A program made the translations under genes and the position numbers. 16,586 nt of DNA, taken from NCBI GenBank assembly GCA_048885925.1, contig JBHLLG010000060.1, positions 1 through 16,586 on the forward strand. Reading direction: 5' to 3'. Source of the stretch: Candidatus Hermodarchaeota archaeon. Lineage in GTDB: Archaea > Asgardarchaeota > Lokiarchaeia > Sigyniarchaeales > SOKP01. Shown here one piece after another: positions 1 through 16,586 of the stretch; the first letter of the stretch is position 1, and every line of letters starts with the position of its first letter. The notes beneath the pieces are model-generated. The model had not been told where the DNA came from, did no database searches, and was given only the letters and a program-made list of their open reading frames with translations.

Positions 1-1060
1 GTGTAGGTGGAGGGGCTCCTACTGTTTTTAACATATCTTTAATTTTTTGTGCTTTTAGAAAAAATTCTTTCCCTAATGAATCATCGCCTAATTCGATACA
101 TAATCCGCTTATTTTATCAAATAAAAACGCAGCTTTACTAAAATCAGCATTTTTTAATGCACCCACAGCTTCCTCAGTTAACTTGTCTCTTTCAAGTAGT
201 GGCTTAAGAAGAGGAGATACCTCTGCACTCATTTCTAAAACATCAGCAATTATCTGAATCATTTTATCACGATTCATTGGATCAAGAGCAATCATGGAAT
301 ATGTTTTTAAACCAAGAATTTTCTCAATTTGCAAAGCATTTAAAGTACCTTTTATATCCTGTTTATTTCCAATTACCGAGACCTGAGCATTTGGTGCTTG
401 ATCTTTTATCAATTCTAAAAAATATCTACTTTTTTCAACATTTTCTAGAGTAGAATCTGTAATTAAAAGAACAGCATCGCTCCCTTTAATGAAATTGTTC
501 CATAAATAGCTAAACTGCTCCTGTCCAGCAAAATCCCATAAATGAAAGTGTAATTTTCCAATTTTTATTGTTGCAATATCTCCTGTAATTGTTGGGATAT
601 GTTGCATAGGAATTTCATCTGCTTTTATTAATTTAGTAATTGTGGTTTTGCCTACACCAGAAAATCCAACTAAAGAGATTTTAGGACGTAAATTTCTATG
701 AATAGAATCAATAATAGGATCAAAAACCTCAAGAGTTTTGGCATCAAATTTATGTTGTAAAATATCTTCAAATAAGTTCAAGAATTCGTCTCTACATCTT
801 ATTAGTTCCTTTTTAATGTTTTCAAATTTATCACTTAAGCTTGATACAAATAGAAATATGAGACTAGTTTTTTTTTCCGTTATGAAAGATACTCTAAATT
901 TATAATAATCATAAAAAGATATTTTCGGTTCACTTTGAGTTAAGGCTTCCCTAATAAGATCCTCTACAAGAAGATTTAACGCTTCTTTCTTTAATGCTTT
1001 TCCAAAGTGTCTATAATATAAAATTTCATTGCTTCTGTATATAAACACTTGTCTTAAAAT
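1..1060 (-). CDS. Longin-domain / Arf-like small GTPase fusion with C-terminal three-helix (MIT/TPR-like) domain; 3' end runs off the window
   Basis: Hand-translated, not in the ORF track. Open for 353 codons from 1060 to the window edge. G1 GFSGVGKTT (667-641), G2 PTI, G3 WDFAGQ (538-521), G4 NKQD (367-356). The N-terminal ~120 aa (ILRQVFIYRSNEILYYRHF...LIFLFVSSLSDKFENIKKELIRCRDEFLNLF) show the beta-beta-alpha-beta-beta-beta-alpha-alpha longin pattern. Ends ...DMLKTVGAPPPT at the edge. In-frame TGA at 1069-1067 limits the start to ATC 1063, ATT 1060 or GTG 1048. Confidence 0.92.
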   Translation of the reverse strand, partial: MLRQVFIYRSNEILYYRHFGKALKKEALNLLVEDLIREALTQSEPKISFYDYYKFRVSFITEKKTSLIFLFVSSLSDKFENIKKELIRCRDEFLNLFEDILQHKFDAKTLEVFDPIIDSIHRNLRPKISLVGFSGVGKTTITKLIKADEIPMQHIPTITGDIATIKIGKLHFHLWDFAGQEQFSYLWNNFIKGSDAVLLITDSTLENVEKSRYFLELIKDQAPNAQVSVIGNKQDIKGTLNALQIEKILGLKTYSMIALDPMNRDKMIQIIADVLEMSAEVSPLLKPLLERDKLTEEAVGALKNADFSKAAFLFDKISGLCIELGDDSLGKEFFLKAQKIKDMLKTVGAPPPT

Positions 1061-1592: not shown

Positions 1593-1705
1593 AATTAATA
1601 GACATTGCTTTTAGATAAATAATGAAAACCTATTTATTTATATTTATTCAGTTATTAGATTCAATATATTACTAAGATATTAACAAATTTAGCATATAAA
1701 TATAT

Positions 1706-2503
1706 TTGAAAATTTACAAAACAAGTTTTTCGGAAAAAGAATCTGATATTACGATTATATCTGATTCTAAAAATGCTATTTTAAGAGCGAAAGAATGTTT
1801 TTATAGACAAAGAAGAATTTTAGAAGAATATATAGCAAAAGATACACATTTTCTTAATTCATTTTCTCCTGTTAAGGTAAATACTAATTTTAGAATAATT
1901 AATATTATGGCTAAAGTAGCAGAAATGTGCAATGTTGGTCCAATGGCTTCTGTAGCGGGAACATTTGCAGATTTAATGCTTGAGAGAATGAAAATTAAAA
2001 ACTTGAATCAAAACTCTGAGTCTTCAACTTGTAAAATAGCTTTAGTTGAAAATGGAGGTGAAATTGCAATTGATTCTGAGAAATCAATGAAAATTGCTTT
2101 ATATGCAGGTAAAAATGAATTAAATCTAAATCTTGGATTTCTAATAAAAAAAGAAGATTCTCCAATAGGTATTGGGACGAGTTCTGCAACAATAGGTCAT
2201 GCAATTAGTTTTGGGCAAGCAGATGCAGTAACAATTTTCGCGAAAAATGCAGCATTAGCAGATGCAGCTGCAACGAAAATATGTAACTTAGTTAAAGGAA
2301 AAGATATAGAAAAATCGATAAAGAGAGGTTTAGATGCTGTAGATGATATTGACGACTTAATAGGCGCATTAATTGCTCGTAAGGATAAAGTAGGGCGAAC
2401 TGGAAAAATACCTCAATTATTTAAGATAGAAGGAGCAAAAAATAAAATAATAACAGGAAAAGTTGAAGATATATTTATTGATGATTACAAAATTTTTAAA
2501 TAA
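1706..2503 (+). CDS. UPF0280 / ApbE-like family protein
   Basis: Motifs VGPMASVAG, VENGGEIA and GIGTSSATIGHAISFGQADAVTIFAKNAALADAAAT are characteristic of archaeal UPF0280 (COG2122). TTG start. Overlaps the convergent gene by 8 nt. Confidence 0.9.
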   Translation: MKIYKTSFSEKESDITIISDSKNAILRAKECFYRQRRILEEYIAKDTHFLNSFSPVKVNTNFRIINIMAKVAEMCNVGPMASVAGTFADLMLERMKIKNLNQNSESSTCKIALVENGGEIAIDSEKSMKIALYAGKNELNLNLGFLIKKEDSPIGIGTSSATIGHAISFGQADAVTIFAKNAALADAAATKICNLVKGKDIEKSIKRGLDAVDDIDDLIGALIARKDKVGRTGKIPQLFKIEGAKNKIITGKVEDIFIDDYKIFK

Positions 2504-4781
2504 TCCAAAATAATGGAGTTTCTTTTTTGTTTATCGATTTGGCAGAACAAATTTTATTTATATAAGTAAGATTATAATACTGTTCTAATTCCTCATCTGT
2601 CAATTGCCCAAATAGTTCGAAACCTCTATTAATGATATAATCATCAGCAAAAATAATGTATACATCTGTATTGTATTCTTTTTTAATTTCCTTTAAAATA
2701 TTTATCCCACTTTCATTCAAATGATTATTTGGAGGAAATAAATCAATTTGATATTTCAAAAAATAGAAATTATGATCATAAAGGAGAGCTTCTGTTTTGT
2801 TATCAAATGGATATCCATAATACTTGAACGCGTGACTCCAACCAACTTCAGTAATTATAACATTCTTATGAGAGGTTCTATTTGAATACCATTGAATAGC
2901 ACTAACGTCTCTTCCTTTCATAATGAAAATGTCAAATGCCTTAGATTCATAGAAATATGTAGTTAATAATGAAAAGATCAAAATAAATAAAATTGCATAT
3001 TTCTTTTGAAATGTTCTTATTGAATTCAATTTAATAAGTTTATAAATGTATGCTATAAACCCAATTACTAGAATAGGAGGGATTAAATAGAGTATTCTTT
3101 GCCAAATCATATTACTTAATGCTAAAATATTAAATATAAAACCAATACCTAAAAATAATAATAAGCCAAGCCCCCAAATAAATAATGCCTTTCCTCTTCG
3201 CTTTTTTTGAAATAATAATAAACCCCAAATTGCGAAACTACTAATCATAATTATTTCAATCACATAAAAAATATTTATTAGTTCTAAATTAATCCATGCA
3301 AAGTTTATTATTAAAAGAATAATAAGTACTATGATTAAAATACTTGAAATAAACGGAATTATTATCTTATCTTCTACTTTTTTATAGAAAATGTCTGTTT
3401 CTCCTTTAATTACCTTATTAAATTTTCCTTTTGTAAAATTTATTGATTTTTGAATTTTCCAAATTATGATAAATCCTATTAAACCTCCGCCTAATGCTCC
3501 TAAAATAAGAAAAGACCATGGAATATCTAAAGATATAAAGAACCAATAATGCCCTTCTCCTATACCAAAGATAGAGAAAATTATAAATAATAATAATAAT
3601 CCACATAACAGGATAAAATCAAACCCTCTCTTATAATCTCTTAAGAAATAAATTAAAAATAACCATAGAAATGATATTAGAAAAAATAATGTTGTAACAT
3701 CATGTGTAAGGACTGAACTAATGAAAATAACTGTAATTAAAGCATAATCAAAAAACATATTTGAGAAGATTAATTTTTTCGTTGGACGTTCAAATTTGGT
3801 AAAATCTTGGATCCTAACATAAAAAAGGAAAAAAATCGTTAAACATTTGATTAAAGCAGAACCAGAGGGCCAATATTGAATCATCATTGTGGAAAAACCT
3901 AACGAAGAAAATTCTAAAAGAAATACTCCAAATAATGCCAAATTCTGATTTTTAAAGACTCTCATACAAATATTATAAAAAATTAGCCCTGAGACAAAAA
4001 AAGTGTAGAATACAAAATACCTTGGGATTAATGTATGATTTGCTCCAGAAAAGAAGTTAATTACAGCCCCAAATATGTTTAATCCCATAGTTCCGTGATA
4101 ACCTTCTAACGGTAAAATCTTAATATCAGTAATAATCCTACTATTAAGAATGTGAAGCCACGGGTCAGTTCCGATAAAATAATCCGCTTTAACAATATTT
4201 AAAATACAGATTAAGAATAAAAAGATAATTAATAATAGTGCATTAAAAGGAATTATTTTTTTGAAGTATTTCAATAAAGATAATAGGTTTAAGTTTTCTG
4301 TTTTTATAGTTGAAATATCTTTAGATCTTAAAAATGTATACGAATTTTTTTTTAATTCAAAAATTGAAATATAACCAATTATAAAAAAATACATAATTAA
4401 CAATGAAAAAAAGAAGAAAAACTTTGTTAATAGGAAGCCAAGAATATATCCAATATATCCCATCAGAATATAAAAAGCAGAATTTACAACTATTGTTAAA
4501 CTTAGTTTCTCTAAATAATTGAATGATTTCTCTTTAAAGATTATGAAAAAGATTGGGTAAGTAGGTAAAAATAAAATAGTAAAGACAGTACAAATAGAAA
4601 TTATAGTATGAAATAGAGAATTTAAAATCAAATTTTCTGAAAATCCCAAAATAATATCCAAATTAATAATTTTAAAGAAAATAAATAGAAGTGATATGAA
4701 GGAAACTAAAACAACAATTAAATTAATTCTTAAATTCAGAAAAAGCAAAATATTTTTGAATTTCCCTTTAACAACTTCCAT
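2496..4781 (-). CDS. Polytopic membrane protein, probable GT-C-fold glycosyltransferase
   Basis: 761 aa with well over 10 hydrophobic segments. GTDPWLH in the loop after a TM segment resembles the DPxxH loop motif of STT3/AglB-like GT-C enzymes. Soluble C-terminal domain starts AIQWYSNRT...VIITE. No WWDxG motif. Confidence 0.6.
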   Translation of the reverse strand: MEVVKGKFKNILLFLNLRINLIVVLVSFISLLFIFFKIINLDIILGFSENLILNSLFHTIISICTVFTILFLPTYPIFFIIFKEKSFNYLEKLSLTIVVNSAFYILMGYIGYILGFLLTKFFFFFSLLIMYFFIIGYISIFELKKNSYTFLRSKDISTIKTENLNLLSLLKYFKKIIPFNALLLIIFLFLICILNIVKADYFIGTDPWLHILNSRIITDIKILPLEGYHGTMGLNIFGAVINFFSGANHTLIPRYFVFYTFFVSGLIFYNICMRVFKNQNLALFGVFLLEFSSLGFSTMMIQYWPSGSALIKCLTIFFLFYVRIQDFTKFERPTKKLIFSNMFFDYALITVIFISSVLTHDVTTLFFLISFLWLFLIYFLRDYKRGFDFILLCGLLLLFIIFSIFGIGEGHYWFFISLDIPWSFLILGALGGGLIGFIIIWKIQKSINFTKGKFNKVIKGETDIFYKKVEDKIIIPFISSILIIVLIILLIINFAWINLELINIFYVIEIIMISSFAIWGLLLFQKKRRGKALFIWGLGLLLFLGIGFIFNILALSNMIWQRILYLIPPILVIGFIAYIYKLIKLNSIRTFQKKYAILFILIFSLLTTYFYESKAFDIFIMKGRDVSAIQWYSNRTSHKNVIITEVGWSHAFKYYGYPFDNKTEALLYDHNFYFLKYQIDLFPPNNHLNESGINILKEIKKEYNTDVYIIFADDYIINRGFELFGQLTDEELEQYYNLTYINKICSAKSINKKETPLFWII

Positions 4782-4794
4782 AATTGAATTCTTC

Positions 4795-5775
4795 TTATTT
4801 TATCTTTAAATTAACGTTATATTTATTAGAATACCATTTAAAATAATCCCTTAATCCTTGTTCTTGATTGTATTTTGGTTGAAATTGTAAAATTTCTTTT
4901 GCTTTTGAAATATCAGCATAACTGTGGATAATGTCTCCGGGTCTCGGAGGATCAAAGATAATTTTCAATTCTTCCTTATTTGTGATTTCTAACATTAATT
5001 TTGCAAGTTCTATTAGTTTAATTGGAGACCCAGCACCAATATTTAAAATCTCTCCAGATATCTTCTGTTCAGCAGCTAATAAATTTGCTTGAACAACATC
5101 TTTTATATATGTAAAGTCTCTTGATTGTTCTCCATCACCAAATATTATTAAATTTTTATTTTCTATTAATCGACCCAACCAAATTGCAATTACTCCACTA
5201 TAGGGAGAATCCTTCTGTCTTGGTCCAAAAACGTTAAAATAACGTAATGAAATGGTATTTATACCATATACTTGATAAAAAACCTGCATATATGCTTCGC
5301 ATGTTAGTTTTGACACACCATAAGGAGAAATTGGAATTCTTGGCATGCTTTCTTCTTTAGGTAATGTTGGAGTATCTCCATATACGGCAGAACTTGAAGC
5401 AAAAATAATTTTCTCAACATCTCTTTTTCTAACTGCATTTAACAAATTTAAAGTACCATTAATATTAACATCATTACATGACTCTGGCATTTTTATTGAT
5501 TGAGGTACACTAGTAAATGCTGCTTCATGAAAAATTATATCAATATCTTCGAAAATTTCAAATAAAAAATTAAAATCCCTTATATCGCCTTTATGGAATT
5601 GGAATTTTTTATTATTTAAGGCTTCTTCAATATTTTCTAGTCGTCCATTAAAGAAATTGTCAATTCCAATTACTTCTACCCCTAATTCAAGTAATTGATC
5701 AGCTAAATTACTACCGATAAATCCCGCAACTCCAGTTACTAATATCCTTTTATCTGCAATTTTCGATATAGACAT
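4795..5775 (-). CDS. NAD-dependent NDP-sugar epimerase/dehydratase (extended SDR; UDP-Glc/GlcNAc 4-epimerase-like)
   Basis: GVAGFIG Rossmann motif, FASSSAVYG, catalytic YGVSK (YxxxK), LRYFNVFGPRQ, GDGEQSRDFTY, PRPGDI. Confidence 0.93.
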   Translation of the reverse strand: MSISKIADKRILVTGVAGFIGSNLADQLLELGVEVIGIDNFFNGRLENIEEALNNKKFQFHKGDIRDFNFLFEIFEDIDIIFHEAAFTSVPQSIKMPESCNDVNINGTLNLLNAVRKRDVEKIIFASSSAVYGDTPTLPKEESMPRIPISPYGVSKLTCEAYMQVFYQVYGINTISLRYFNVFGPRQKDSPYSGVIAIWLGRLIENKNLIIFGDGEQSRDFTYIKDVVQANLLAAEQKISGEILNIGAGSPIKLIELAKLMLEITNKEELKIIFDPPRPGDIIHSYADISKAKEILQFQPKYNQEQGLRDYFKWYSNKYNVNLKIK

Positions 5776-5869
5776 ATTAAAATATTAAATTTGATTTTAT
5801 CCTTTAAAATTTCATATCATATAAAAACATTCAGAAAGAAGAATTGTCTAATAACTATTATGAATTAAT

Positions 5870-6189
5870 CTAACGTAATTCTATCAAATATTTCATAAAA
5901 TCTTCCTTATATTTTTTTGGAAGTTTATCTGGTCTTTTTAAACTGGGATAGGCTTGAAGATTTGTTTTTATTAGGATTAAAATCGGATCTTGTTGGCTTT
6001 TAATATTGTCAAGGGATTTTAACAATTTTTCTTTAGTCTCAATATTAATACTTAATTTATAATTTGTTGCTAATGCTATATCCGTAACTTTAAAATAGAA
6101 GAATTTGTAAATTGTCCTCTTCTAGATTCATGAGCTTCATTATCAATAATTATATAACCGAAATTTGGTAGTGAAACTGAGTTAATATA
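5870..6189 (-). pseudogene. Truncated, frameshifted C-terminal remnant of a ThDP-dependent phosphonopyruvate decarboxylase (Ppd/AepY-like)
   Basis: Frame A (6189-6076): YINSVSLPNFGYIIIDNEAHESRRGQFTNSSILKLRI*. Frame B (6088-5870): VTDIALATNYKLSINIETKEKLLKSLDNIKSQQDPILILIKTNLQAYPSLKRPDKLPKKYKEDFMKYLIELR*. Joined, these match my recalled Ppd C-terminal consensus (NxxHIVxxNxAH[DE]SxGGQxT...FxxIAxAxGY...GPxLIxI...LxRPxxxPxxxKxxFM). No start codon and no GDG motif; in-frame TAA at 6219-6217. Confidence 0.78.
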
Positions 6190-6190
6190 T

Positions 6191-6209
6191 AAAAAAGAAG
6201 AAAAAAAAG
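6191..6209 (-). terminator. Oligo-U archaeal-type terminator after the MFS gene
   Basis: Minus strand CTTTTTTTTCTTCTTTTTT begins ~17 nt after the MFS stop codon. Confidence 0.45.
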
Positions 6210-6226
6210 ATAATAATTATAGAATT

Positions 6227-7546
6227 TTAAATATATTCCTTTCTCTGCGGTATACTTTTCCAATCAAATAATAAAATTAACCCTCCGATTAACGCTACTA
6301 CTATCCAGAGACCAAAAGCGGCTCCAGAACCAGCTGTATAAATAAGAGCTCCAGAGGTAAAAGTTGTAATAGCCGCTCCGATATATCCAATTCCATCAAT
6401 AAATCCTGTAGCTGCAGATGATGCCTTTCTTGTACCAAATTCCATGGGTATCGTAGAAACTAAAAGAGCATGTGGTCCAAAATTTAAAAAGCCAATTAAC
6501 ATCAATACTGGAATTCCGAAAACCATATCAAGCGGAGGTAATAATGTATATATAAACAATGTCAATGCTAACCCAATAAAAAGAATACAAACTACAGGTA
6601 TTCTTCTTCTTTTTAAGAATTTATCTGAAACCCATGCAGCGACAATAACTCCAATTGTGCCCCCTATAGGGTAAAAAATGGACTTCCATGTACCAAAATA
6701 TGATGCGTCTGTTATTGCAGGACTTAATAGATATGGGAGCCAATCTGTTAACCCATATCTGACAATATTTAGACAAAATAACCCAAAAGCTGCAAAAAGA
6801 ACTGTTTTAGTTTTAATTACAGTATTAAAAGTATACTTAAACCCTACAAATTCATCTGGGCGACAATCCCCCATAACTATTTTACCTTCGCATTCTTCTT
6901 CTAAAGTTGGTAAACCAACCTCTTCAGGAGCATTTCTGCTACGAGAATAGAAATGAAATGCCATTAGAAACATGATAATTCCTGGAATAATAAAAGAAAA
7001 ACGCCAATCTAAACTAAATGTATCGGTAATAACTATAGCAAGAAACCATGATAAAACTCCTCCCAGGAGATATGAAGTAGCAAGCCTACTAGACCATCTC
7101 CCTCTTTCTTCTGCTGGATGCCAATTAGCAATCGTTTTTACAGAAGGAGCCCAACCCATTGATTGAAAATAACCATTCAACCCCCAAAAAAGAAATGCAA
7201 CCCAAATAAAATCAAATGCAACTCCCATCAATAAATTCAAAGCGGCAGATACAATTAATCCTAGAGTAATAAAACGCCTAGCACCGACTTTATCACCTAA
7301 AAAACCGTTGAAGAATTGTCCAGCAGCATAAGCAATAAGAAAAATAGAACTAACAAGTCCCATTAAAGGTTCGGAATATATACCAAATTCACTCATTATG
7401 AAAGGTTTCGCTATTGCATAGTTATTACGTCCTATATAGTAGATCATATATGTTATCCAAACGGTAAAGAATATTCGCATCCGCCATGATTTAAATTGCT
7501 TTTTAACTTCAGTTTCATTAGTAATTGTTTCACTCATTTTTTTCAT
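6227..7546 (-). CDS. MFS transporter, organophosphate:Pi antiporter (OPA; GlpT/UhpT/UhpC-like) family
   Basis: About 12 TM segments. OPA-type motifs YYIGRNNY, GFLGDKVGAR, FQSMGWAP...WHPAEERG, RNAPEEVGLP, IVRYGLTDWLPYL, AWVSDK and AATGFIDGIGYIG. Confidence 0.9.
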   Translation of the reverse strand: MKKMSETITNETEVKKQFKSWRMRIFFTVWITYMIYYIGRNNYAIAKPFIMSEFGIYSEPLMGLVSSIFLIAYAAGQFFNGFLGDKVGARRFITLGLIVSAALNLLMGVAFDFIWVAFLFWGLNGYFQSMGWAPSVKTIANWHPAEERGRWSSRLATSYLLGGVLSWFLAIVITDTFSLDWRFSFIIPGIIMFLMAFHFYSRSRNAPEEVGLPTLEEECEGKIVMGDCRPDEFVGFKYTFNTVIKTKTVLFAAFGLFCLNIVRYGLTDWLPYLLSPAITDASYFGTWKSIFYPIGGTIGVIVAAWVSDKFLKRRRIPVVCILFIGLALTLFIYTLLPPLDMVFGIPVLMLIGFLNFGPHALLVSTIPMEFGTRKASSAATGFIDGIGYIGAAITTFTSGALIYTAGSGAAFGLWIVVALIGGLILLFDWKSIPQRKEYI

Positions 7547-7560
7547 CCTTTAAAATTAAG

Positions 7561-8493
7561 CTATAATTTACCTTCTTTTATTAATTGTTTAGCGTATTCA
7601 TAATCTTGTTGGGTATCGATTTCTACCCATCCATGATTTACCTTTACAGCATGTATCGGATATCCTCTATCAATGAGTTCTTGAAGCATATCGGTAAGAT
7701 AGGCTTTCCGAATGGAAACAGCATCATGGAATCGTTGTCCTTCTGCAAATCGACATGTTTTATTTTCTTTTGCTCGATGGTAATTTCTTCGTAAGATTTC
7801 AGCACCTTTTTTAGTAAATTTCGCTACTCCAATAAATTCTCCATCAAACGCATCAGGATTGCAGAATTTTGAGATAAAAACAATTTTACCACCCTTTATT
7901 TTTACTAATTCTGCTTCATCTGTGGGATGTTCATCACGATTTTCATATCTAGCTTTCCAATTTGGTTCTACACAGATACATATATCATAGGGAGCATCCA
8001 AAATCCTTTGAAAAATATCTTTTGAGAAAACACTATCTGCATAAGTAAAAACGAATCCATCTTCCATGGCTTCTTCTGCATAAAAAAGTGATTCTAAAAT
8101 GTTATTTTCTGCGTATTCATCATTATCATAGTATTTAATATTAGAAATTGTAAATTTGTCTTTCTGATAACCTCGTACAACTACAATATCTTCCAGTCCC
8201 ACTTCTCGAAGTACATCAATTTCCCGTTCAATAATAGATTTACCTTCACTAATTTCTAATAGTGGTTTTGGTAGATATTTGGTCATATCCTTTAATCGAG
8301 ATCCCATTCCGGCTGCAATAATAATTACTTTCATTTCTTTTGCTTCCTTAATTTGTTCATATCGTCTTACAATTCGCTCTAGAAGTGAAATATGCTCATT
8401 ATATTTTTCAGATGTTTTTTTATATCCGATCTTTTTAACACTCTCATAAATCTTCTTAATTTCTTCAAGATCTGAATATTTTTGTTCCGGCAT
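7561..8493 (-). CDS. LicC/PntC-like (phosphocholine/phosphonate) cytidylyltransferase with 53-aa N-terminal extension
   Basis: IIIAAGMGSRL...LPKPLL nucleotidyltransferase signature, VVVRGYQ, NDEYAENNILESL, YADSVF, GEFIGVAKF, AYLTDMLQEL, WVEIDTQQDY. Catalytic domain starts at Met54 (8334). Confidence 0.85.
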   Translation of the reverse strand: MPEQKYSDLEEIKKIYESVKKIGYKKTSEKYNEHISLLERIVRRYEQIKEAKEMKVIIIAAGMGSRLKDMTKYLPKPLLEISEGKSIIEREIDVLREVGLEDIVVVRGYQKDKFTISNIKYYDNDEYAENNILESLFYAEEAMEDGFVFTYADSVFSKDIFQRILDAPYDICICVEPNWKARYENRDEHPTDEAELVKIKGGKIVFISKFCNPDAFDGEFIGVAKFTKKGAEILRRNYHRAKENKTCRFAEGQRFHDAVSIRKAYLTDMLQELIDRGYPIHAVKVNHGWVEIDTQQDYEYAKQLIKEGKL

Positions 8494-8772: not shown

Positions 8773-10278
8773 TTATTTGTAAAATCTCCTCATATGTTTG
8801 TTGAAATATAAAGGGAAATATAAAATCCATACTAAAATTTCTTTCCACCTTTGAAGTAGCTGATTTCTTCTAGCAATAATTGATTTTATGACAAATCTTA
8901 AATAACCAGTTTTATTCCACTGATGAGATACATCAGATAATTCAGTATTTAAAATTAGATAACTTTTTGAAATTTTTTTGTATCTTTTTATTAATTTTTT
9001 AAGGCCATAACCGGTAAGTCTATTTAAAAAAAGAATTGTTGTTACATTTCGTATTTTTTTAGGCTCTTTATTAATGATATCATCTTGAGTGATTATTTTA
9101 TTATATTTTTTGAGTTTTTCTCTTAGAAATTTCACTAGTTGAGGAGGAAATTGGTCAGGAATTAAAAATGTCTTAGATTTTAAATAACGTAATACACTAT
9201 GATTATATAATGAATCTAAAGTCAACTTAAAATTATCATAAGCTTTTGATTCAGAATCTAAATAAAATTGGTATAATTCATCAAAAATTTCTGGATTTTG
9301 ATCTTTCACATCCTTTTTTTCTAGTTTATCTTTAGCAAGGTTGAAAAGCGAGAATTTTCCATTATCATTAAGTAATTTCCATGTACCTTTTGTAATCATT
9401 GTCTTTTGAATTGATTGGAACATCAAATAACAATCTCCTCTCACTGTTCTTTCATTATTAACATCTATATTCTTCTCTATTAATGGTTTAAAAGAAATTG
9501 ATTGTCTATCATGGTTAGTTTCGATATTTAAATAATCTAAAATAGTTTCCAATATATCTATTAGATATACTCTTTTATAAATTGTTCTAGGTTTTACTTT
9601 TGTTAAAATGGGCGGAATTCTTATGAATAAAGCAGGTTGCATTGATGATTGATGTATATCATCAAAGTGTAATAATTTAGTTTTTTGGTATAGATTTTTA
9701 TCATAATATCCATGATCAGAATTAAGAATAAATAGGGAATTATTCCAAAAATTATTTCTTTTCAAGAATCCAATTATCTTTCTTACATACAAATCAGCCT
9801 GGGGATCGCTAGGTCGAAAAAATATGAAAAATAGATTTTTTTCTTTAGAAGTAATGTTCTCCACTTTCTTAATAAAGAGATCATAAACCTCTTTCGCATC
9901 TAACCAATGATCTCCTTGATACATCTCTTCTCTATAATAAGGATTGAGAATATCTTGGAGAACAATTACTTGTTCTTTACCAAATATTATAGAATGAATA
10001 TTATAGCCCTCTTTTTTTAAAGGGTAAATATTATTATCTAATTCTAAACTTGGAAGGTTTTCAATTGAGCGATAATAATCCGGAAATACATTATAAGGAT
10101 ATTTCCCAGTTAAAAATGAAAGCACAGATAAATTTGTAGATGGGAATTGAGATACCGCATCTTTAAAGTAAAAACCGTCCTTCCCTTTTTCTAATTCTTT
10201 ATATATTGGAAGTAGACTATGCAGATCCGGTCGTTCATAATTACAAATTGAATCAGTTAGAATCCAAAAAATATTCAT
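8773..10278 (-). CDS. Alkaline phosphatase superfamily (sulfatase-like) hydrolase/transferase, Thr-nucleophile type
   Basis: NIFWILTDS (first metal Asp), FPSTNLSVLSFLTGKYP at the nucleophile position (no C/SxPxR), FILNSDHG, LIDILETILDYL, and sulfatase-like C-terminal WKL...LFNLAKDKLE. No signal peptide seen. Confidence 0.8.
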   Translation of the reverse strand: MNIFWILTDSICNYERPDLHSLLPIYKELEKGKDGFYFKDAVSQFPSTNLSVLSFLTGKYPYNVFPDYYRSIENLPSLELDNNIYPLKKEGYNIHSIIFGKEQVIVLQDILNPYYREEMYQGDHWLDAKEVYDLFIKKVENITSKEKNLFFIFFRPSDPQADLYVRKIIGFLKRNNFWNNSLFILNSDHGYYDKNLYQKTKLLHFDDIHQSSMQPALFIRIPPILTKVKPRTIYKRVYLIDILETILDYLNIETNHDRQSISFKPLIEKNIDVNNERTVRGDCYLMFQSIQKTMITKGTWKLLNDNGKFSLFNLAKDKLEKKDVKDQNPEIFDELYQFYLDSESKAYDNFKLTLDSLYNHSVLRYLKSKTFLIPDQFPPQLVKFLREKLKKYNKIITQDDIINKEPKKIRNVTTILFLNRLTGYGLKKLIKRYKKISKSYLILNTELSDVSHQWNKTGYLRFVIKSIIARRNQLLQRWKEILVWILYFPLYFNKHMRRFYK

Positions 10279-10283
10279 TTAAA

Positions 10284-10288
10284 CACCT
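10284..10288 (-). promoter_or_regulatory. Shine-Dalgarno-like AGGTG upstream of the sulfatase-like gene
   Basis: Minus strand AGGTG-TTTAA-ATG (start at 10278). Confidence 0.6.
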
Positions 10289-10319
10289 GTTTAATTTCTC
10301 AATAATTCCTTTTAGAATT

Positions 10320-11141
10320 TCATTCTTTTTCTTTCATGAACTTTTTTTTGTAATGCTTTAGAGCATCTTTATCAATACTCTTTGCTTTTAAAACCATAAA
10401 AGTTGAGAATACAAAAAGTAGAAAAACAACATAAAACATCATTAGTAATTCTAGTATCATAGCAATATTAAAATAGATGTACAATAAGAAACCAATTAAA
10501 AACATTGTAGTAATAATATGTGTGTGACTAAAAGCATTTACAAGGTTTATTGATATATTTTTTATTTTCTTGAAAAATGTTTTTTTCGGAGGACCTACTT
10601 CTTTATTCTCACTTTCATCTGGTATTTTGTTTTGTACTTGTCCTTTAGTAAATGCAATTATAGATATTTTACGAATAGTTCTTATGCCAATTAAGAAGAA
10701 AGTCGCTATTATTCCAAAAAATATGTATAAAAATTCAGAATTGATTCTAAAAATACTATATCCAAAGGCAAAGAAAAACCATCCCTGAAAGAACAAATGT
10801 CCGATTTCATCATAATATATACCTTGTAAAGAAGTTTGTTTTTTATATCTAGCAACTTCACCATCAACTTCATCTGACAAATAATAAATATATACTAAAA
10901 TAAATCCTAAGATAATAAAAATTTTATTCGTTATTGCTATTAACAATAATCCTATTAACCCAATTAAGGTTCCAGTGATTGTAATAGAATTTGCTGTTAT
11001 AGGAGTCTTAACCAGAATCCAAGTAATATATCTTGATAAAGTTGTGTAGATCCAATGCCACCAATCTTTCTTCTTTTTTCGCTTTTCAAGTTTTGTTCCT
11101 TGAATAATCTGCTTAAATTCTTTAAAGCTTTCTCTTGGCAT
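10320..11141 (-). CDS. CDP-alcohol phosphotransferase family protein
   Basis: ITANSIT motif and signature DEVDGEVARYKKQTSLQGIYYDEIGH (DxxDGxxAR...GxxxDxxxD with the last Asp as His); about 6 TM segments. ATG at 11141 preferred over the track's TTG at 11207, which would leave only 15 nt before the divergent gene. Confidence 0.9.
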   Translation of the reverse strand: MPRESFKEFKQIIQGTKLEKRKKKKDWWHWIYTTLSRYITWILVKTPITANSITITGTLIGLIGLLLIAITNKIFIILGFILVYIYYLSDEVDGEVARYKKQTSLQGIYYDEIGHLFFQGWFFFAFGYSIFRINSEFLYIFFGIIATFFLIGIRTIRKISIIAFTKGQVQNKIPDESENKEVGPPKKTFFKKIKNISINLVNAFSHTHIITTMFLIGFLLYIYFNIAMILELLMMFYVVFLLFVFSTFMVLKAKSIDKDALKHYKKKFMKEKE

Positions 11142-11222
11142 ATTGCATAAAAAATAGTTTTTAAATGTATAAAAATTAGAAACCTTATAATCTTTATTTA
11201 AAACCAAAAGGAACGTTGAAAA

Positions 11223-11921
11223 TTGAACTTTATTACTAAAATTATTAAAAAAATTACGAAATATTATCTTTCTTATTTCAATTATATTATACCCTATTTT
11301 CCTAAATTCATTTGGAAAAGAATAAAACTTCTTTCAGTTATGAATTATTGGAGAATAGAATATAGATTAGGAGGAAAAGACAAATATAATCAAGACCCAT
11401 CTCTAAAAATCATTTTTGAGCGATATTGTAAACATTTACAAATAGATAAGAATACATTTAGGGGAAAAATTGTTGTTGATGTAGGATGTGGACCTCGAGG
11501 ATCCCTTCATTATTTTAATGCTAAATTAAAAATCGGAGTTGATCCTTTTGCGAATTTCTATCGAAAATATTTTAATGTTGATAAACAAAACATGATATAT
11601 GTTCACGCTAGTGCTGAAAAAATGCCCATAAATAATGAATTTACGGATTATGTTATTTCACATAATGCTTTAGATCATGTTGATAATTTCAAACAATCTA
11701 TAAAAGAAATCCATAGAATTCTTAAACCAAATGGAATAATAATTTTCCAACTTAACTTTAATAAAAAGCCTACGATTAACGAACCAATTGTGTTGAATAA
11801 GGCAATAGTAAAAAACACCTTAGAGCCTTATTTCGAATATAAAATAGAAAATGAAATCCTTACGCAAGAATATAGACATTTTGGTTCATATATTTTAATT
11901 AAAGGTAAGAAAATTAATTAA
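11223..11921 (+). CDS. Class I SAM-dependent methyltransferase
   Basis: Motif I VVDVGCGPRG, IGVDP, ASAEKMPI..EFTDYVIS.NALDHV, EIHRILKPNG. Exact start uncertain (TTG). Confidence 0.88.
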   Translation: MNFITKIIKKITKYYLSYFNYIIPYFPKFIWKRIKLLSVMNYWRIEYRLGGKDKYNQDPSLKIIFERYCKHLQIDKNTFRGKIVVDVGCGPRGSLHYFNAKLKIGVDPFANFYRKYFNVDKQNMIYVHASAEKMPINNEFTDYVISHNALDHVDNFKQSIKEIHRILKPNGIIIFQLNFNKKPTINEPIVLNKAIVKNTLEPYFEYKIENEILTQEYRHFGSYILIKGKKIN

Positions 11922-12077
11922 AACTAAAAATCAAAGTAATTGAAATTTATTCAATATATATTTTATTTAAAAAATGATCTTAGCTTAAGATTTCTTAATT
12001 TCTTCAAATCATAAATTTAATTTGAGACTCACTATTTTTTTTTTTAATTTATAATAATTTATAACTTGATTCTTAAC

Positions 12078-13721
12078 ATGGAAGATTCTGGTGATGAACT
12101 GCAGTTTTCTATAGGTGAGACAGAATATAGAAAATTGGCGACAAATACTTTTTACTCGTTCATGTTTAATTATAGTTCCTTATTTTTTACATTTATATAT
12201 TCATTTCTTTTAGCGCGTCTATTTGTGGATGTAATTTGGGGATATCTCATATTATCTACATCATATATAATGATTATAGTAATAATTTCGTCGTTATTAC
12301 CACCAGGTCTCAATTTTGCCTTGAATTATTATATTCCTAGACATTTTGCATTAAATGAAAAATCTAAAATAAAATCGCTAATTCGAAATTCAGTCATAAT
12401 AAAATTGGTATTTTTAATTCCAATTTTTATTATCAGTATTCTGATTTTTCAATTAATTTCTATCTATCTTGTAGATACATTGGTTTCCCTTTTTTTTATC
12501 ATGTCTCCCTGTATCTTAATTAATAGCTTAAATTACATTTTAGAAGCAATAAATCGTGGCTTTAATAAATTTCATTATAATTTCTGGTTTTTGATGGTGA
12601 AAAATGTAATTCATATTGTACCATTAGTTATTTTTTTTGTTTGGGATATTATGGTTGAGATTGAAATTGTAGCTTGGATCATATTATTTTCAAGTTTAAT
12701 TCCGTTCATTTTGAATTCTGTTCTTGTTTTTATTATGGTCAATAAAATTAAATCACTTGAAAGTATGACCAATTCATTTAAAAAAGATTTATCTAAAACA
12801 TTCAAGTACGGCAGTTATATGGGGGTCAATGATCTTATCGAAAGACTATGGAAAGAATCCCAACTTCAAGGAATTGGCTATATCGTGTCTCCAGATTTTG
12901 TCACTGGATTTAATATCTCAATAAATTATCAGAAATTAAATGATTATATTGTTTATTCTTTTCATTTTCCATTATTAACTTCTTTTACAACTTTAGACGC
13001 AAGAGAAAGTTATGAGCAAATAGATATGATTTATAGAATAGCTTATAAAATAACTTTATTTGTACTTTTAATCATTTCAGGAATTCTATATTTTTGTGTT
13101 GAGTTTGTTTTAGATTTTGTATTCCTTGAGGATCGCTTAATATATTCAAATTTACTTCGATTAATGGTGCTTGCTTCTATTTTTAGACTTTTAGCTGCAT
13201 TTCTACAAAGTCTATTAAATGCTCAACATAAAGTAAAATTAACATTAATTTTAAGAATAATTTATACTTCAATGAGTATTCCTTTATTTTTTATAGGGCT
13301 TTTCTTTTATGGTGTTGAAGGTGCAATATTATATGGATTAATTATCGGAAATATTCTCTCAATGGGGGTTCAAATTTTTGCTACTTATAAATATGGTAAT
13401 ATTCATTTAAATCTTAAAAAAGTTATTATCCAATACATAGCGTTTTTCCTTCCGTTGGTTATTACGATTTTTTTAAAAGAATTTATATTTGAAGACATTA
13501 GTTTTCGGATTATTCAGAATTTAGGTCTATTACTCTTTAAAAAATTCGACTTTCTTTCTCTTAGCGCATTTCTTATTCTTTTTACATTAATAAATTTAGT
13601 TCTTAAAGTGGTTACCACTTCTGATATTATATATTTTAAATCACTTTTAAATAAAGAAAGATTTTTTGATAAAATTCTTATTAAAAGTTTAAATTTGTTA
13701 AAAAAGTTTTCAAGGGACTAA
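12078..13721 (+). CDS. Oligosaccharide flippase (Wzx/MOP superfamily)
   Basis: About 14 TM segments. N-terminal LATNTFYSF...LLARLF...WGYL...PPGLNFALNYYIP is typical of Wzx-like exporters. ATG at 12078; the track's TTG at 12066 is also possible. Confidence 0.82.
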   Translation: MEDSGDELQFSIGETEYRKLATNTFYSFMFNYSSLFFTFIYSFLLARLFVDVIWGYLILSTSYIMIIVIISSLLPPGLNFALNYYIPRHFALNEKSKIKSLIRNSVIIKLVFLIPIFIISILIFQLISIYLVDTLVSLFFIMSPCILINSLNYILEAINRGFNKFHYNFWFLMVKNVIHIVPLVIFFVWDIMVEIEIVAWIILFSSLIPFILNSVLVFIMVNKIKSLESMTNSFKKDLSKTFKYGSYMGVNDLIERLWKESQLQGIGYIVSPDFVTGFNISINYQKLNDYIVYSFHFPLLTSFTTLDARESYEQIDMIYRIAYKITLFVLLIISGILYFCVEFVLDFVFLEDRLIYSNLLRLMVLASIFRLLAAFLQSLLNAQHKVKLTLILRIIYTSMSIPLFFIGLFFYGVEGAILYGLIIGNILSMGVQIFATYKYGNIHLNLKKVIIQYIAFFLPLVITIFLKEFIFEDISFRIIQNLGLLLFKKFDFLSLSAFLILFTLINLVLKVVTTSDIIYFKSLLNKERFFDKILIKSLNLLKKFSRD

Positions 13722-13741
13722 AAGGGTAAAAATTCTTGGAG

Positions 13742-14935
13742 TTATTTGTATAATTGATCAAAATTTTTCATATTTTTTTCCCATAAGAAGTCACTTTTAA
13801 TTTTTTCTAAGCTGTTCTTTAAAAATTTATTCCTTAGGTTTTCATCTTTTAGAAGTTTTTTAATGGATCTTGCATAACAAATATAATTTTCAGTCTCACA
13901 CAATAGTCCATTTTCTAAATGTTTTATTAAATCTCTTGTACCGGCTATATCACTAGTTATTATTGGAACTTGAAATATCATTGCTTCCATTAAAACTCCA
14001 GCTAATCCTTCACCTCTACTAGGAAGAAAGAATATATCAGCACATCTATAAAAATTATGTACATCGAGTCTATTTCCTACGGACAAAATTTTTTGATTTA
14101 AACCATATTTCAAACTCATTTGGATTAAATTTTTCCGCTCTGGACCGTTTCCTACTAAAATGAACTTAACCTTTTGGCTTTTTAATAAATTCGCAGTTTT
14201 TAATATTAAATCAATCCCTTTTCTATTATTAAGAAGTCCAACAAATAAAATTATTTTTTCATCTTCATTTATTTTATAAATTTTTTTTATATCTTTATCA
14301 GAAGGTTTTGTTATTAAATCGATTCCTGTTGGTGTAACTCTAATCTTTCTTTTTGGGACTCCTGCTTTATGAGCATATTTAATCATGGACGTGCCATAAA
14401 TACTTATGTAATTAGATGCTAAAAAAACAAGTTTACCTAATGTTTTAAAGAATATTTTAAATAAGATGTCTAATACAGATGAAAATTTAAAAGAATATGC
14501 TGGAATGGTATCCATTGTGAGAATTAGTCTTTTCTTTTTAAAGAATAATAGTTTTAACATACACAGAATAAATGTATTTGGGTAGAATGGAACCCAAACA
14601 TGAAAAATCTCATTATTTTTTAATATTTTCCAGCATTTTTTAAAATATTCTAAATTAATGGGTATTGGCCATGAAAAACCAGATGATTTCGTCCATACTG
14701 GGTAAGTTATTAGATTTATCCCATCAAAATCATCGTAAAATCTTGTAATCTCTTTTAATATTTCATTTTTTTTCCTTGGAGTAAAAATTGATACAATAAA
14801 TTCTTTCTTTTTCAATTTATGCGTTATAAAGGAGATTGGTCTTTTAATGTTAATCCCAGGGTTTATAAAACATATTCGTCTATAATTTTTACCCATAAAT
14901 AGGGAAAGGAATAATGAATTTTTTAAATTACTCAT
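13742..14935 (-). CDS. Glycosyltransferase family 4 (GT-B, retaining)
   Basis: VTPTGID, ILFVGLLNNRKGIDLIL, LVGNGPE, DIFFLPSRGEGLAGVLMEAM (ExxxxxxxE), NGLL. Confidence 0.92.
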   Translation of the reverse strand: MSNLKNSLFLSLFMGKNYRRICFINPGINIKRPISFITHKLKKKEFIVSIFTPRKKNEILKEITRFYDDFDGINLITYPVWTKSSGFSWPIPINLEYFKKCWKILKNNEIFHVWVPFYPNTFILCMLKLLFFKKKRLILTMDTIPAYSFKFSSVLDILFKIFFKTLGKLVFLASNYISIYGTSMIKYAHKAGVPKRKIRVTPTGIDLITKPSDKDIKKIYKINEDEKIILFVGLLNNRKGIDLILKTANLLKSQKVKFILVGNGPERKNLIQMSLKYGLNQKILSVGNRLDVHNFYRCADIFFLPSRGEGLAGVLMEAMIFQVPIITSDIAGTRDLIKHLENGLLCETENYICYARSIKKLLKDENLRNKFLKNSLEKIKSDFLWEKNMKNFDQLYK

Positions 14936-15261
14936 TTAAAAATTTTTTTTGTATTAATCTGGAATTGAGTAAATCTATAAAAGAAATGAATTAATCGAGT
15001 ATAAAAGATATTTTCTTATAGAAAAAAATTAATATTATTCAAAAATAGTAAAAAACTGTTATATAAATATTTAATTAATAGAATAAACTTATTTTTTATA
15101 TTACATAATATATTAACACATGCCAAAAAATATTGTTAAAATTTGAAAAAAATTAACATTAAATCTAACTTTTTATAGAACTTGGAGCATTTACGTTGAA
15201 GATATCAATACAACCTAAAGAGATAAATTCTACAATTAAAAGAAAATCTATTTATACAACT

Positions 15262-16029
15262 ATGAAATTCCTTTTTCCTAATTTAAAAGTTGGAGTTGTA
15301 ATGCCTGCTTACAATGAAGAATTAAACATTGGACAAACCCTCGAACAAATTCCTGAGAATATTTCTGAAATTTTTGATGTAATTGTTGTTGATGATGGTT
15401 CAGTTGATAAAACTAGCGATATTGTTAAAAATTATAATGTAACTCTTATTAAACATTCTCAAAATAGAGGGTATGGTGCTGCTGTAAGAACAGGATTAGA
15501 CTATTGTAAAAAAAAAGAATATGATGTAGTAATTATTCTTGATACTGATGGTCAGCATTCTCCAAAATATATTAAGGAATTTATAAAACCAATTGTTGAA
15601 GATGACATAGATTTTGTTATTGGAAATCGATATAAATATTACTATGATATGATAGGGTTTAAGAAATTATGTGTAAAACTTATGACTGCTTTATATATGG
15701 TATTTCTTCAAAAAAAAATAATGGATCCAACAAATGGATATCGTTCATTATCTTCAAAAGTAGTAAATGATTTAGAACTCGAATCCGAGTATTCAATTTC
15801 ACAAGAGATGCTTTTTAAAGTTATTCCCTATTATAAATATAAAGAAATTCCAATAAAAGTTTATCAAAGAAACCATGGCCAATCTTTTATCAAAATCAAA
15901 AATTATTTGCTTAAAATAATATTACTATTTCTAAAGTTTTATATCTTCCCAAAAGTCAGAAAAATTACTCATAAAATTTTACCTGAAGAATTTAGGACAA
16001 GAGTTAAATCTTATTATCTAAAAACTTAA
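15262..16029 (+). CDS. Glycosyltransferase family 2, DPM1-like (polyprenol-phosphate glycosyltransferase-like)
   Basis: VVMPAYNEE, VIVVDDGSVD, HSQNRGYGAA, LDTDGQH, DFVIGNR, DPTNGYR, EIPI...R..GQS. ATG at 15262 preferred; the track extends to TTG 15196. Confidence 0.92.
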   Translation: MKFLFPNLKVGVVMPAYNEELNIGQTLEQIPENISEIFDVIVVDDGSVDKTSDIVKNYNVTLIKHSQNRGYGAAVRTGLDYCKKKEYDVVIILDTDGQHSPKYIKEFIKPIVEDDIDFVIGNRYKYYYDMIGFKKLCVKLMTALYMVFLQKKIMDPTNGYRSLSSKVVNDLELESEYSISQEMLFKVIPYYKYKEIPIKVYQRNHGQSFIKIKNYLLKIILLFLKFYIFPKVRKITHKILPEEFRTRVKSYYLKT

Positions 16030-16043
16030 CAAAATTGAAATTT

Positions 16044-16086
16044 GTCTCCACCTTTTTGCTCATACATAAATTGTAACAGTGGAGAC
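16044..16086. repeat. 8-bp perfect GC-rich inverted repeat (GTCTCCAC / GTGGAGAC) with 27-nt spacer
   Basis: GTCTCCAC at 16044-16051 and GTGGAGAC at 16079-16086, starting 15 nt after the GT2 stop codon. Confidence 0.6.
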
Positions 16087-16196
16087 CATTAATTTTTTAT
16101 AGCTAAGAATAATAAATATAGAATAAAACAAAAAGACAAAAACTTATAAATTTATGTGTAAATTTTTAAGTTGAGTCCATATAAAATGTTTTCATT

Positions 16197-16586
16197 ATGA
16201 CCAAATATCAATATAATTCTGAAGAAATTATTAATAAAGCTGATAAACTATATTCAAATAAGTATTTATTTGAGATAAAAAAAGTTCAAAATAATGCACC
16301 TTTATTCTCTGTAATAATTCCACTTTATAATGAAGAAAATACGATTAAAAATGTTATTCAAAGAATACCTAACCATCAGCAGTATGAAATCATTATAGTA
16401 GATGATGGCTCAACTGATAATAGTATCAAGAAAGTTCAAGAAATTAATAACAGAGCGATTAAAATAATTAAACATGAAAAAAATCAAGGTTATGGCGCAG
16501 CAATATTGACTGGTTTTGAACATGCTATTGGAGATATTTTAATCACTCTAGATTCTGATGGACAACATAATCCTGAAGAAATTCCC
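16197..16586 (+). CDS. Glycosyltransferase family 2, DPM1-like; 3' end runs off the window
   Basis: Hand-translated, not in the track: MTKYQYNSEE...LFSVIIPLYNEE...EIIIVDDGSTD...HEKNQGYGAAILTGFEHAIGDILITLDSDGQHNPEEIP; 130 codons open to the edge. Confidence 0.92.
   Translation, partial: MTKYQYNSEEIINKADKLYSNKYLFEIKKVQNNAPLFSVIIPLYNEENTIKNVIQRIPNHQQYEIIIVDDGSTDNSIKKVQEINNRAIKIIKHEKNQGYGAAILTGFEHAIGDILITLDSDGQHNPEEIP

Follow-up and report, generated by a model that had tools for sequence, protein, structure and literature searches.

A frameshifted 3′ stub of a phosphonopyruvate decarboxylase gene marks the loss of a phosphonate module that is recurrently excised in a genus of Asgard archaea

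Does an apparently empty gap between two genes of an Asgard archaeon hold the remains of a further gene, and what was lost together with it? The question is raised by a contig of Candidatus Hermodarchaeota archaeon (assembly GCA_048885925.1, contig JBHLLG010000060.1; C60 of the genome designated here G000), which was analysed as a whole (the window; 16,586 bp, G+C content of 26.6%). Between two minus-strand genes, encoding a major facilitator superfamily (MFS) transporter (6227-7546) and a sugar epimerase (4795-5775), lie 451 bp without an open reading frame of at least 60 amino acids (aa). A preliminary description of this DNA had proposed that the gap hides a pseudogene of phosphonopyruvate decarboxylase (Ppd), a thiamine diphosphate (ThDP)-dependent enzyme of phosphonate biosynthesis, with two minus-strand frames together giving its C terminus. 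We conclude, at a probability of roughly 95%, that the gap between the MFS and epimerase genes holds a nonfunctional 3′ stub of ppd that was left by the deletion of a phosphonate module.

On the minus strand, positions 5870 to 6168 comprise about 99 codons, which are distributed over two frames and are colinear with the last 103 positions of the Ppd model TIGR03297. The proximal part (6088-6168; 27 codons) reads PNFGYIIIDNEAHESRRGQFTNSSILK, ending in ...DNEAHESRRGQFTNSSILK, and corresponds to Ppd residues ~284 to 310; it includes IIDN, with which the ThDP-binding motif ends, and the DNEAHES block. The distal part (5873-6085; 71 codons, with a stop codon at 5870-5872) is read in the other frame, starts with TDIALATNYK, ends with ...LKRPDKLPKKYKEDFMKYLIELR, and corresponds to residues ~311 to 381. 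A tblastn search with an intact orthologue placed the proximal part on residues 284 to 310, the distal part on residues 309 to 380, and the whole stub on residues 284 to 380 of 381. Two pieces of 46 and 83 aa taken from these frames were compared with the NCBIfam models. TIGR03297 was the sole match of the 46-aa piece (profile positions 258-293 of 360; 19.1 bits, E = 5.2e-4) and was matched by the 83-aa piece at positions 291-360 of 360 (32.8 bits, E = 3.7e-8); the two matches are colinear and abut where the frame changes. The strings quoted in the preliminary description were recovered by translation, and its reading of the two frames as a ThDP-enzyme C terminus agrees with these matches. Upstream of a PNF motif, nothing Ppd-like was detected in the stub region, so that the ThDP motif has lost its GDG, as had been described. 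In intact relatives, which carry PF02776 and PF02775, the GDG-X26-N motif spans residues ~260 to 292 and ends in ...IIDN. The stub starts 3′ of GDG, so that only this ...IIDN end is kept and the N-terminal pyrimidine-binding domain is lost. Retained are the DNEAHES and LKRP blocks, which are common to all 12 intact orthologues described below.

The similarity could alternatively reflect another ThDP enzyme, such as the sulfopyruvate decarboxylase subunit ComE or acetolactate synthase, or could have arisen by chance. ComE-beta is related to Ppd, as an intact Ppd orthologue (from genome G022) scores 124.9 bits on the ComE-beta model, and one stub piece gave a faint acetolactate synthase match, the only one to this family (NF004772; 10.4 bits, E = 0.14). 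However, TIGR03297 was the best family and the only one with an E value of <0.01 for both pieces, while the ComE-beta model TIGR03846 was reported for neither of them at E ≤ 10 among the NCBIfam models, so that the comparison of Ppd and ComE models came out on the side of Ppd. The syntenic G022 orthologue likewise passes the Ppd cut-off (419.4 bits; cut-off, 312.5) and fails that for ComE-beta (221.5), and the nearest intact same-genus orthologue, 66% identical over the stub, adjoins a phosphoenolpyruvate (PEP) mutase gene. The strongest other Ppd-model match in the archaeon's own genome is a two-gene ComD/ComE pair on contig C18 (L001:1122-1616 and 1618-2175, plus strand; alpha subunit of 164 aa, beta subunit of 185 aa). 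Both proteins pass their curated cut-offs (198.0 versus 147.95 bits for alpha and 242.8 versus 221.5 bits for beta); the remaining Ppd-like matches in this genome are much weaker and lie inside long open frames. At the place of the DNEAHES of Ppd and the stub, this ComE has DNCSYGS, and it lacks LKRP; the preliminary description had taken AHES and LxRP as favouring Ppd over ComE. BLASTP of both stub pieces against it returned no alignment, which excludes the stub as a fragment copy of the genome's own ComE. ComDE (TIGR03845/TIGR03846) thus shares the ThDP superfamily with Ppd but is a two-subunit enzyme with motif residues that differ from those of the stub, and an origin from such an enzyme or by chance is extremely improbable. 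The stub is a descendant of the Ppd family and not a functional member of it.

What the complete gene and its surroundings look like can be seen in relatives. The 83-aa piece was searched in 60 genomes, namely, G000, 35 others of the genus and 24 further relatives, and matched 16 of them at E ≤ 0.01. Nine of the 35 other same-genus genomes contain open frames of 378 to 391 aa (the Ppd genes have 377 to 381 aa) that are 48 to 63% identical to the piece, and all nine carry, on the same contig and a few kilobases upstream, a PEP mutase above the TIGR02320 cut-off. A second sample of the genus was searched with P761, a protein encoded at the same locus; 35 of its 40 genomes matched, and three more intact ppd loci were added. 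Locus states were scored by tblastn of ten reference proteins over the fetched loci of 20 genomes, including G000. An intact block was found in 12 of them (G001, G004, G012, G016, G017, G022, G024, G028, G030, G060, G061 and G062), a ppd 3′ stub only in three (G000, G023 and G031), and an MFS gene adjoining P761, with ppd undetectable by tblastn, in one (G002). Four further genomes (G005, G008, G025 and G063; two of these loci are cut by contig ends) displayed another arrangement with no module in the fetched stretch.

The intact block consists of a PEP mutase::nucleotidyltransferase fusion gene (PepM; 563 to 569 aa), an iron-dependent alcohol dehydrogenase (Fe-ADH) gene (378 aa), a nucleotidyltransferase gene (NT238; 238 aa) and ppd (377 to 381 aa), in this order, and is flanked by the MFS gene (or a sulfatase-like gene) on one side and by the epimerase gene or P761 on the other. 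The usual intact locus comprises genes for a CDP-alcohol transferase, a sulfatase-like protein, the nucleotidyltransferase NT307 and the MFS transporter, followed by the block, the epimerase gene and P761. The gap in the window is flanked by orthologues of the genes that flank the intact block. The presence of adjacent PEP mutase and Ppd genes at this syntenic site in 12 same-genus genomes, where the preliminary description had proposed to look for intact pepM-ppd, bears out its inference that the locus once made carbon-phosphorus (C-P) compounds. In G012, the ppd-epimerase junction is split over two contig ends (C12 and C5), both of which carry ppd 3′ sequence. An apparent second, truncated ppd in this genome is probably an assembly break or strain variant at the contig ends and neither a second copy nor a relic of its own; the other end enters the epimerase start. 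Outside the phylum, the closest Ppd genes (47 to 55% identity) are found in archaeal metagenome-assembled genomes (MAGs) titled Hodarchaeota, Methanosarcinales, Woesearchaeota, Nanoarchaeia and Nanoarchaeota. Bacterial Ppd proteins are 36 to 45% identical and come mostly from Treponema, followed by Bacteroidota/Bacteroidales, with single Prevotella, Kiritimatiellia and Pelagibacter records and other records.

Family assignments of the block genes were made with the G022 proteins. The fusion protein carries PF13714 in its N-terminal and PF12804 in its C-terminal part and scores 339.3 bits on the PEP mutase model TIGR02320 (cut-off, 319.55), being the only PEP mutase scored individually. The EDKxxxxxNS motif, given as a PEP-mutase motif in passages of PMC6697681, is present in all nine PEP mutase fusions checked. 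The 378-aa protein is an iron alcohol dehydrogenase (PF00465 and PF25137), and PhpC-like Fe-ADHs convert phosphonoacetaldehyde to 2-hydroxyethylphosphonate (HEP), as stated in parts of PMC8942020. The intact block contains no aminotransferase gene, and the Fe-ADH gene is present beside ppd. Therefore, going by family membership, the ancestral branch was probably that to HEP and not that to 2-aminoethylphosphonate (AEP). Of the two pathways that the preliminary description had left side by side, the HEP pathway is thus the more probable. A caveat to this assignment is that the G022 Fe-ADH scores 203.7 bits on a lactaldehyde reductase model and 197.7 bits on the phosphonate-linked TIGR03405, with both values below the cut-offs.

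How the block disappeared from the window can be read from its edges. The junction was mapped by blastn against seven intact loci and by alignment to G061, and lies at 6168-6201 (minus strand). Homology to the relatives' MFS-pepM spacer runs ~25 to 40 nt past the MFS 3′ end and stops at 6186 to 6201; homology to ppd resumes at 6155 to 6175, at about codon 275 to 284. In the coordinates of G022, G001 and G061, the skipped stretch measures 4.58 to 4.64 kb, so that ~4.6 kb of the ancestral locus is missing. The deletion took the first three genes of the module and the first ~275 codons of ppd. On its MFS side, the retained start of the spacer (6202-6226, minus strand) aligns with the relatives' spacer after the MFS stop codon, and on its epimerase side, DNA alignments to G001 and G061 identify 5776-5869 (minus strand) as the original ppd-epimerase spacer. 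The opposite course of events, in which the relatives' module was inserted into a preexisting ppd-like fragment and nothing was deleted here, is unlikely, since the stub follows the 3′ end of the complete gene colinearly.

In addition to the 5′ truncation, the stub lost its open frame through one -1 frameshift. Its exact position within a T-rich run (6085-6097, minus strand) is ambiguous. Alignment of the stub region to G061 DNA (465 nt, 77% identity) contains exactly one 1-nt gap, which is the frameshift, and the alignment to G001 DNA likewise places a 1-nt gap at this site; the preliminary description had restored one T near 6087. Among the 12 intact orthologues, 34 columns are invariant, one of which falls on the frame break. 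The stub retains 26 of the 34, and at seven of the 33 scorable columns it has another residue (V>G, H>Y, T>R, G>R, P>F, G>D and E>K). For the intact orthologues, a leave-one-out control gave only zero to four broken invariant columns each. Two of the mutated glycines pointed out earlier, G>R and G>D, are therefore among the changes at invariant columns; a third, GY to NY, is not a mutation, since all 12 orthologues have N-Y. Identity among the intact orthologues is 51 to 91% (median, 63%), and the best identity of the stub (66%) falls inside this range, which argues that the stub was part of a working gene for most of its history. As a rough estimate from the seven changes relative to synonymous divergence, inactivation may have occurred in the later part of the archaeon's own lineage branch.

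We infer that the stub has no residual role. It would still be useful if it encoded a short peptide, formed the 3′ end of the MFS transcript or served as regulatory sequence for the downstream epimerase gene. Three of the four independent losses described below left a ppd 3′ piece beside the downstream gene, the fourth (G002) kept about the last 7 codons, and the ppd-epimerase spacer is well conserved. However, an AT-rich, TATA-box-like block of 15 nt (5814-5828), which has the same sequence in G001 and G061 and may represent the promoter of the epimerase gene, is part of the spacer and not of ppd. Neither frame has an ATG near its head, and the frameshift and the changes at invariant residues have accumulated within the coding sequence. 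The lengths retained in the four losses vary from 7 to 99 codons, which fits deletions that merely spared neighbouring genes. A search of 5700-6300 with Rfam gave one snoRNA-model match, whose score (23.8 bits; E = 0.32) lies below the gathering score of 43 and is that of a chance match. A retained use of the stub is thus very unlikely.

Another possibility was that the truncation or the frameshift is an artefact of assembly or binning and that the real organism has an intact ppd; the assembly is indeed a fragmented metagenome assembly (181 contigs, 95% complete, 4.4% contamination). The stretch from 5400 to 6800 is present in runs of 11 studies, and four of the 22 listed runs were aligned, one from the study that is the probable source and three from other studies. 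In run X4, from another study, one contig of 2,072 nt spans the entire 1.4 kb of this stretch with 11 substitutions and no gaps; run X8 covers 5400-6181 and run X10 covers 5765-6160, each without gaps. The contigs of the three other studies reproduce the junction of MFS gene, stub and epimerase gene. Within 5870-6189, no indel was reported in the four aligned runs, the contigs of which cover the frameshift site. The sole indels, of 1 nt at 5857 and of 10 nt at 6191 in the T-rich spacer, were both from X10, and the only joint within 5870-6189 was a 180-nt skip (5942 to 6123) in one X10 contig. Three of the four aligned sediment or soil runs have loose ends at 5942, where contigs match the window and then diverge. 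These loose ends, which speak for an artefact, show that the sediments also hold a related sequence that diverges inside the stub and differs in its ppd 3′ region; together with the gap at 6191, they point to co-occurring related strains, possibly with a different or intact ppd. However, the arrangement is repeated in independent assemblies and both flanks are syntenic with those of relatives, so that an artefact, including the assembly chimera considered in the preliminary description, is hardly credible.

Some observations weigh against the conclusion that the gap is a ppd stub left by deletion. The general ThDP models of Pfam detected neither stub piece and gave only two chance-level matches, and both pieces score far below the whole-protein cut-off of TIGR03297; both results are expected of a fragment of only a quarter of the protein length (~100 residues). 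The comparison of assemblies was made with contigs, in which rare intact variants would be missed, and not with raw reads. Pairwise Nei-Gojobori ratios of nonsynonymous to synonymous substitution (dN/dS) between the stub and the 12 orthologues are 0.19 to 0.42, with proportions of synonymous differences (pS) of 0.39 to 0.68; a rough value for one intact pair, calculated by hand from pS and the nonsynonymous proportion pN, is ~0.3, and the stub does not stand out. Synonymous sites are near saturation and the stub is short, and these ratios are uninformative. Therefore, the case for relaxed selection rests on the invariant-column count and the frameshift. Finally, a PEP mutase gene could lie on an unassembled piece of the 95%-complete genome. 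Within that genome and the window, no PEP mutase match was found at E ≤ 10. With no other PEP mutase in its genome, this archaeon can no longer make C-P bonds by the PEP mutase route.

Was this loss a single event? A maximum-likelihood tree of P761 was calculated from 19 rows (G030, in which P761 is cut by a contig end, and G029 were left out); it is a single-gene tree of a linked gene and not a species tree. In this tree, all four genomes that lost the block have sisters in which it is intact. G000 groups with G061, G022 and G001 (support, 100/100), G031 with G012 and G028, G023 with G016, and G002 with G017 and G060. The breakpoints differ as well. The deletion in G000 runs from the spacer after the MFS gene to about codon 275 of ppd, that in G031 (C15 [L040], 9848-10299) from about codon 8 of pepM to about codon 343 of ppd (~4.6 kb), and that in G002 (C13 [L049], 3394-3572) from the spacer into ppd, of which about the last 7 codons were spared (~4.9 kb). 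In G023 (C87 [L039], 9575-10410), the deletion from about codon 64 of pepM to about codon 348 of ppd placed the first 64 pepM codons next to the 34 codons at the end of ppd, and two further deletions removed the MFS gene and most of the NT307 gene, of which a fragment remains. Of ppd, ~99 codons were kept in the window, ~35 in G031, ~34 in G023 and ~7 in G002. The different breakpoints and the separate sister groups indicate four independent excisions of essentially the same four genes, that is, loss of the module in four lineages of the genus as judged from sequence comparison.

The genes that surround the stub are intact, and all are encoded on the minus strand. The MFS transporter (6227-7546; 439 aa) is of the organophosphate:phosphate antiporter type (PF07690, E = 1.1e-45; 229.5 bits on TIGR00881, below the cut-off of 407.75) and is 75 to 88% identical to orthologues in eight relatives, where its gene lies upstream of the PEP mutase gene. 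NT307 (7561-8493; 310 aa; PF12804, E = 1.4e-13) is a paralogue (33 to 37% identity by blastp) of the nucleotidyltransferase domain that is fused to the PEP mutase of the relatives. In the window and in some relatives (307 to 310 aa), NT307 has an N-terminal extension of ~50 aa; the match of other orthologues starts at query residue 49 to 54, and their listed open reading frames have 254 to 257 aa, with one of 166 aa. The start codon or domain boundary of NT307 is accordingly uncertain. Two conserved locus members follow, a sulfatase-like protein of the alkaline-phosphatase superfamily (8773-10278; 501 aa; PF00884, E = 1.2e-8), 56 to 67% identical to its orthologues, and a CDP-alcohol phosphatidyltransferase family protein (10320-11207; PF01066, E = 1e-4; NF040950, E = 5.2e-12), 73% identical to its G022 orthologue. 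On the other side of the stub, the NAD-dependent sugar epimerase/dehydratase (4795-5775; PF01370, E = 2.8e-65), encoded downstream of ppd in relatives, is 72 to 84% identical to its orthologues. P761 (2496-4781; 761 aa) belongs to no Pfam family and is conserved at the locus across the genus with 51 to 79% identity; distant copies (41 to 46%) occur elsewhere in many genomes, including G000 (C27:30231-32477).

The ends of the window carry genes of other types. Positions 2-1048 (minus strand) encode an Arf/Roc/Ras-type small GTPase domain (PF00025, E = 3.8e-22) of a protein that runs off the contig; its orthologues in relatives have 550 to 714 aa, and it is of the eukaryote-signature type typical of Asgard archaea. 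Positions 11223-16586 hold an island of the surface-polysaccharide type with a class I methyltransferase, a Wzx-like flippase (PF01943), one GT4 and two GT2 glycosyltransferases. The Arf/Roc-type GTPase and the archaeal-type glycosylation genes fit Lokiarchaeota-type Asgard archaea, and the island fits a phosphonate module that decorated a surface polymer.

These observations are best explained by the following history. The ancestor carried the four-gene module of PEP mutase::nucleotidyltransferase, Fe-ADH, second nucleotidyltransferase and Ppd. From the known roles of these families, the module would have converted PEP via phosphonopyruvate and phosphonoacetaldehyde to HEP, which would have been activated with a nucleotide and attached to a surface glycan or lipid; both HEP as the product and its cellular destination are deduced from gene content and remain putative in this sense. 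A single deletion of ~4.6 kb, which starts just past the stop codon of the MFS gene and reaches about codon 275 of ppd, removed the module. The remaining ~100 codons have since drifted, with one -1 frameshift and with seven residues replaced that are invariant elsewhere.

The flanking genes raise the question of what remained of the pathway. In the window, the genes for the MFS transporter, NT307, the sulfatase-like protein and the CDP-alcohol transferase have kept their full length without disruption over ~4.5 kb, while the 0.3-kb stub is already frameshifted, which suggests that these four genes still serve a purpose independent of homemade phosphonate. Intact MFS, NT307 and sulfatase-like genes are still found in three of the four lineages that lost the module (G000, G031 and G002). 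Of the MFS and NT307 genes, 13 loci have both, G012 and G024 have neither, and G023 lost both by deletion. One speculative explanation, to which we assign little likelihood, is that the C-P module is a dispensable cassette in a surface-decoration locus, from which it is lost cleanly and time and again, and that decoration switches, after its loss, from making the head group to scavenging an imported one. The retained MFS, NT307, sulfatase-like and CDP-alcohol transferase proteins might then run the decoration on this imported head group, for which a phosphate ester or a phosphonate of external origin, such as HEP or AEP set free by neighbours, would be candidates. By analogy, phosphonate salvage by the MFS transporter is conceivable: GlpT and UhpT, members of its family, carry the phosphonate fosfomycin, and the bacterial lic system, which scavenges choline, offers a loose parallel for the switch from making to scavenging. 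Among 58 loci around Ppd relatives, no MFS gene was found beside ppd outside the genus without the genus-type module. MFS genes were seen only in loci with module genes at least 65% identical to the query, all but one of which are titled Promethearchaeota or Promethearchaeia MAGs (the remaining one is titled 'uncultured archaeon'). The confinement of the MFS gene to genus-type loci means that there is no outside support for a link between transporter and phosphonate.

How do the stub and the intact module compare with known systems? Ppd is exemplified by Fom2 of fosfomycin biosynthesis and by the enzyme of the Bacteroides fragilis AEP pathway. Over the C-terminal quarter of the family model, the stub is colinear with it and keeps the DNEAHES and LKRP blocks, but with ~99 of ~380 codons, no N-terminal domain and no GDG, it is a relic and not an enzyme. 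In the early HEP module of fosfomycin-type pathways, Fom2 is the Ppd and FomC is the counterpart of the Fe-ADH; the relatives' intact module has the same three activities plus nucleotidyltransferases. It differs in that ppd is the last gene, the host is an Asgard archaeon, antibiotic-type tailoring genes are missing and the neighbours are surface-glycan and lipid-type genes. The fusion partner is also different: in Fom1, it is N-terminal and belongs to PF01467, whereas in the relatives' protein it is C-terminal and belongs to PF12804. Fom1 and PhpC are named for fosfomycin-type pathways in sections of PMC6697681 and PMC8942020, and ~60% of PEP mutases are fused to a nucleotidyltransferase according to a section of the former. 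The Pnt clusters for cell-surface phosphonates (PntC cytidylyltransferase; Rice et al. 2019, PMC6697681), as portrayed in parts of that article, likewise contain a PEP mutase::NTP_transf_3 fusion, with additional nucleotidyltransferases at most one or two genes away and with transferases and glycosyltransferases as neighbours. As given there, Pnt clusters mostly include an AEP transaminase, whereas the module described here has an Fe-ADH and no aminotransferase, and the substrates of the three nucleotidyltransferases are putative. A search of the open literature (subscription journals and supplementary tables were outside its scope) found no work linking phosphonate biosynthesis with Asgard archaea or Lokiarchaeota, and the accessible parts of a study on the glycoproteome of a cultured Asgard archaeon (PMC11284389) mention no phosphonate or phospho groups.

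Taken alone, the stub is a routine pseudogene, an ordinary gene-loss relic of a known enzyme family, and its recognition corrects the annotation of an 'intergenic gap'. The added value, which is modest, lies in the recurrently excised cassette of the HEP type in an Asgard genus. Such a module is common in one genus of Promethearchaeota (intact in 12 of the 20 loci scored), is located in a surface glycan/lipid locus and was excised at least four times. Among the archaea most closely related to eukaryotes, phosphonate decoration may therefore be a surface trait that varies, and the genus offers natural strains 'with and without' the module in which the purpose of the phosphonate could be tested.

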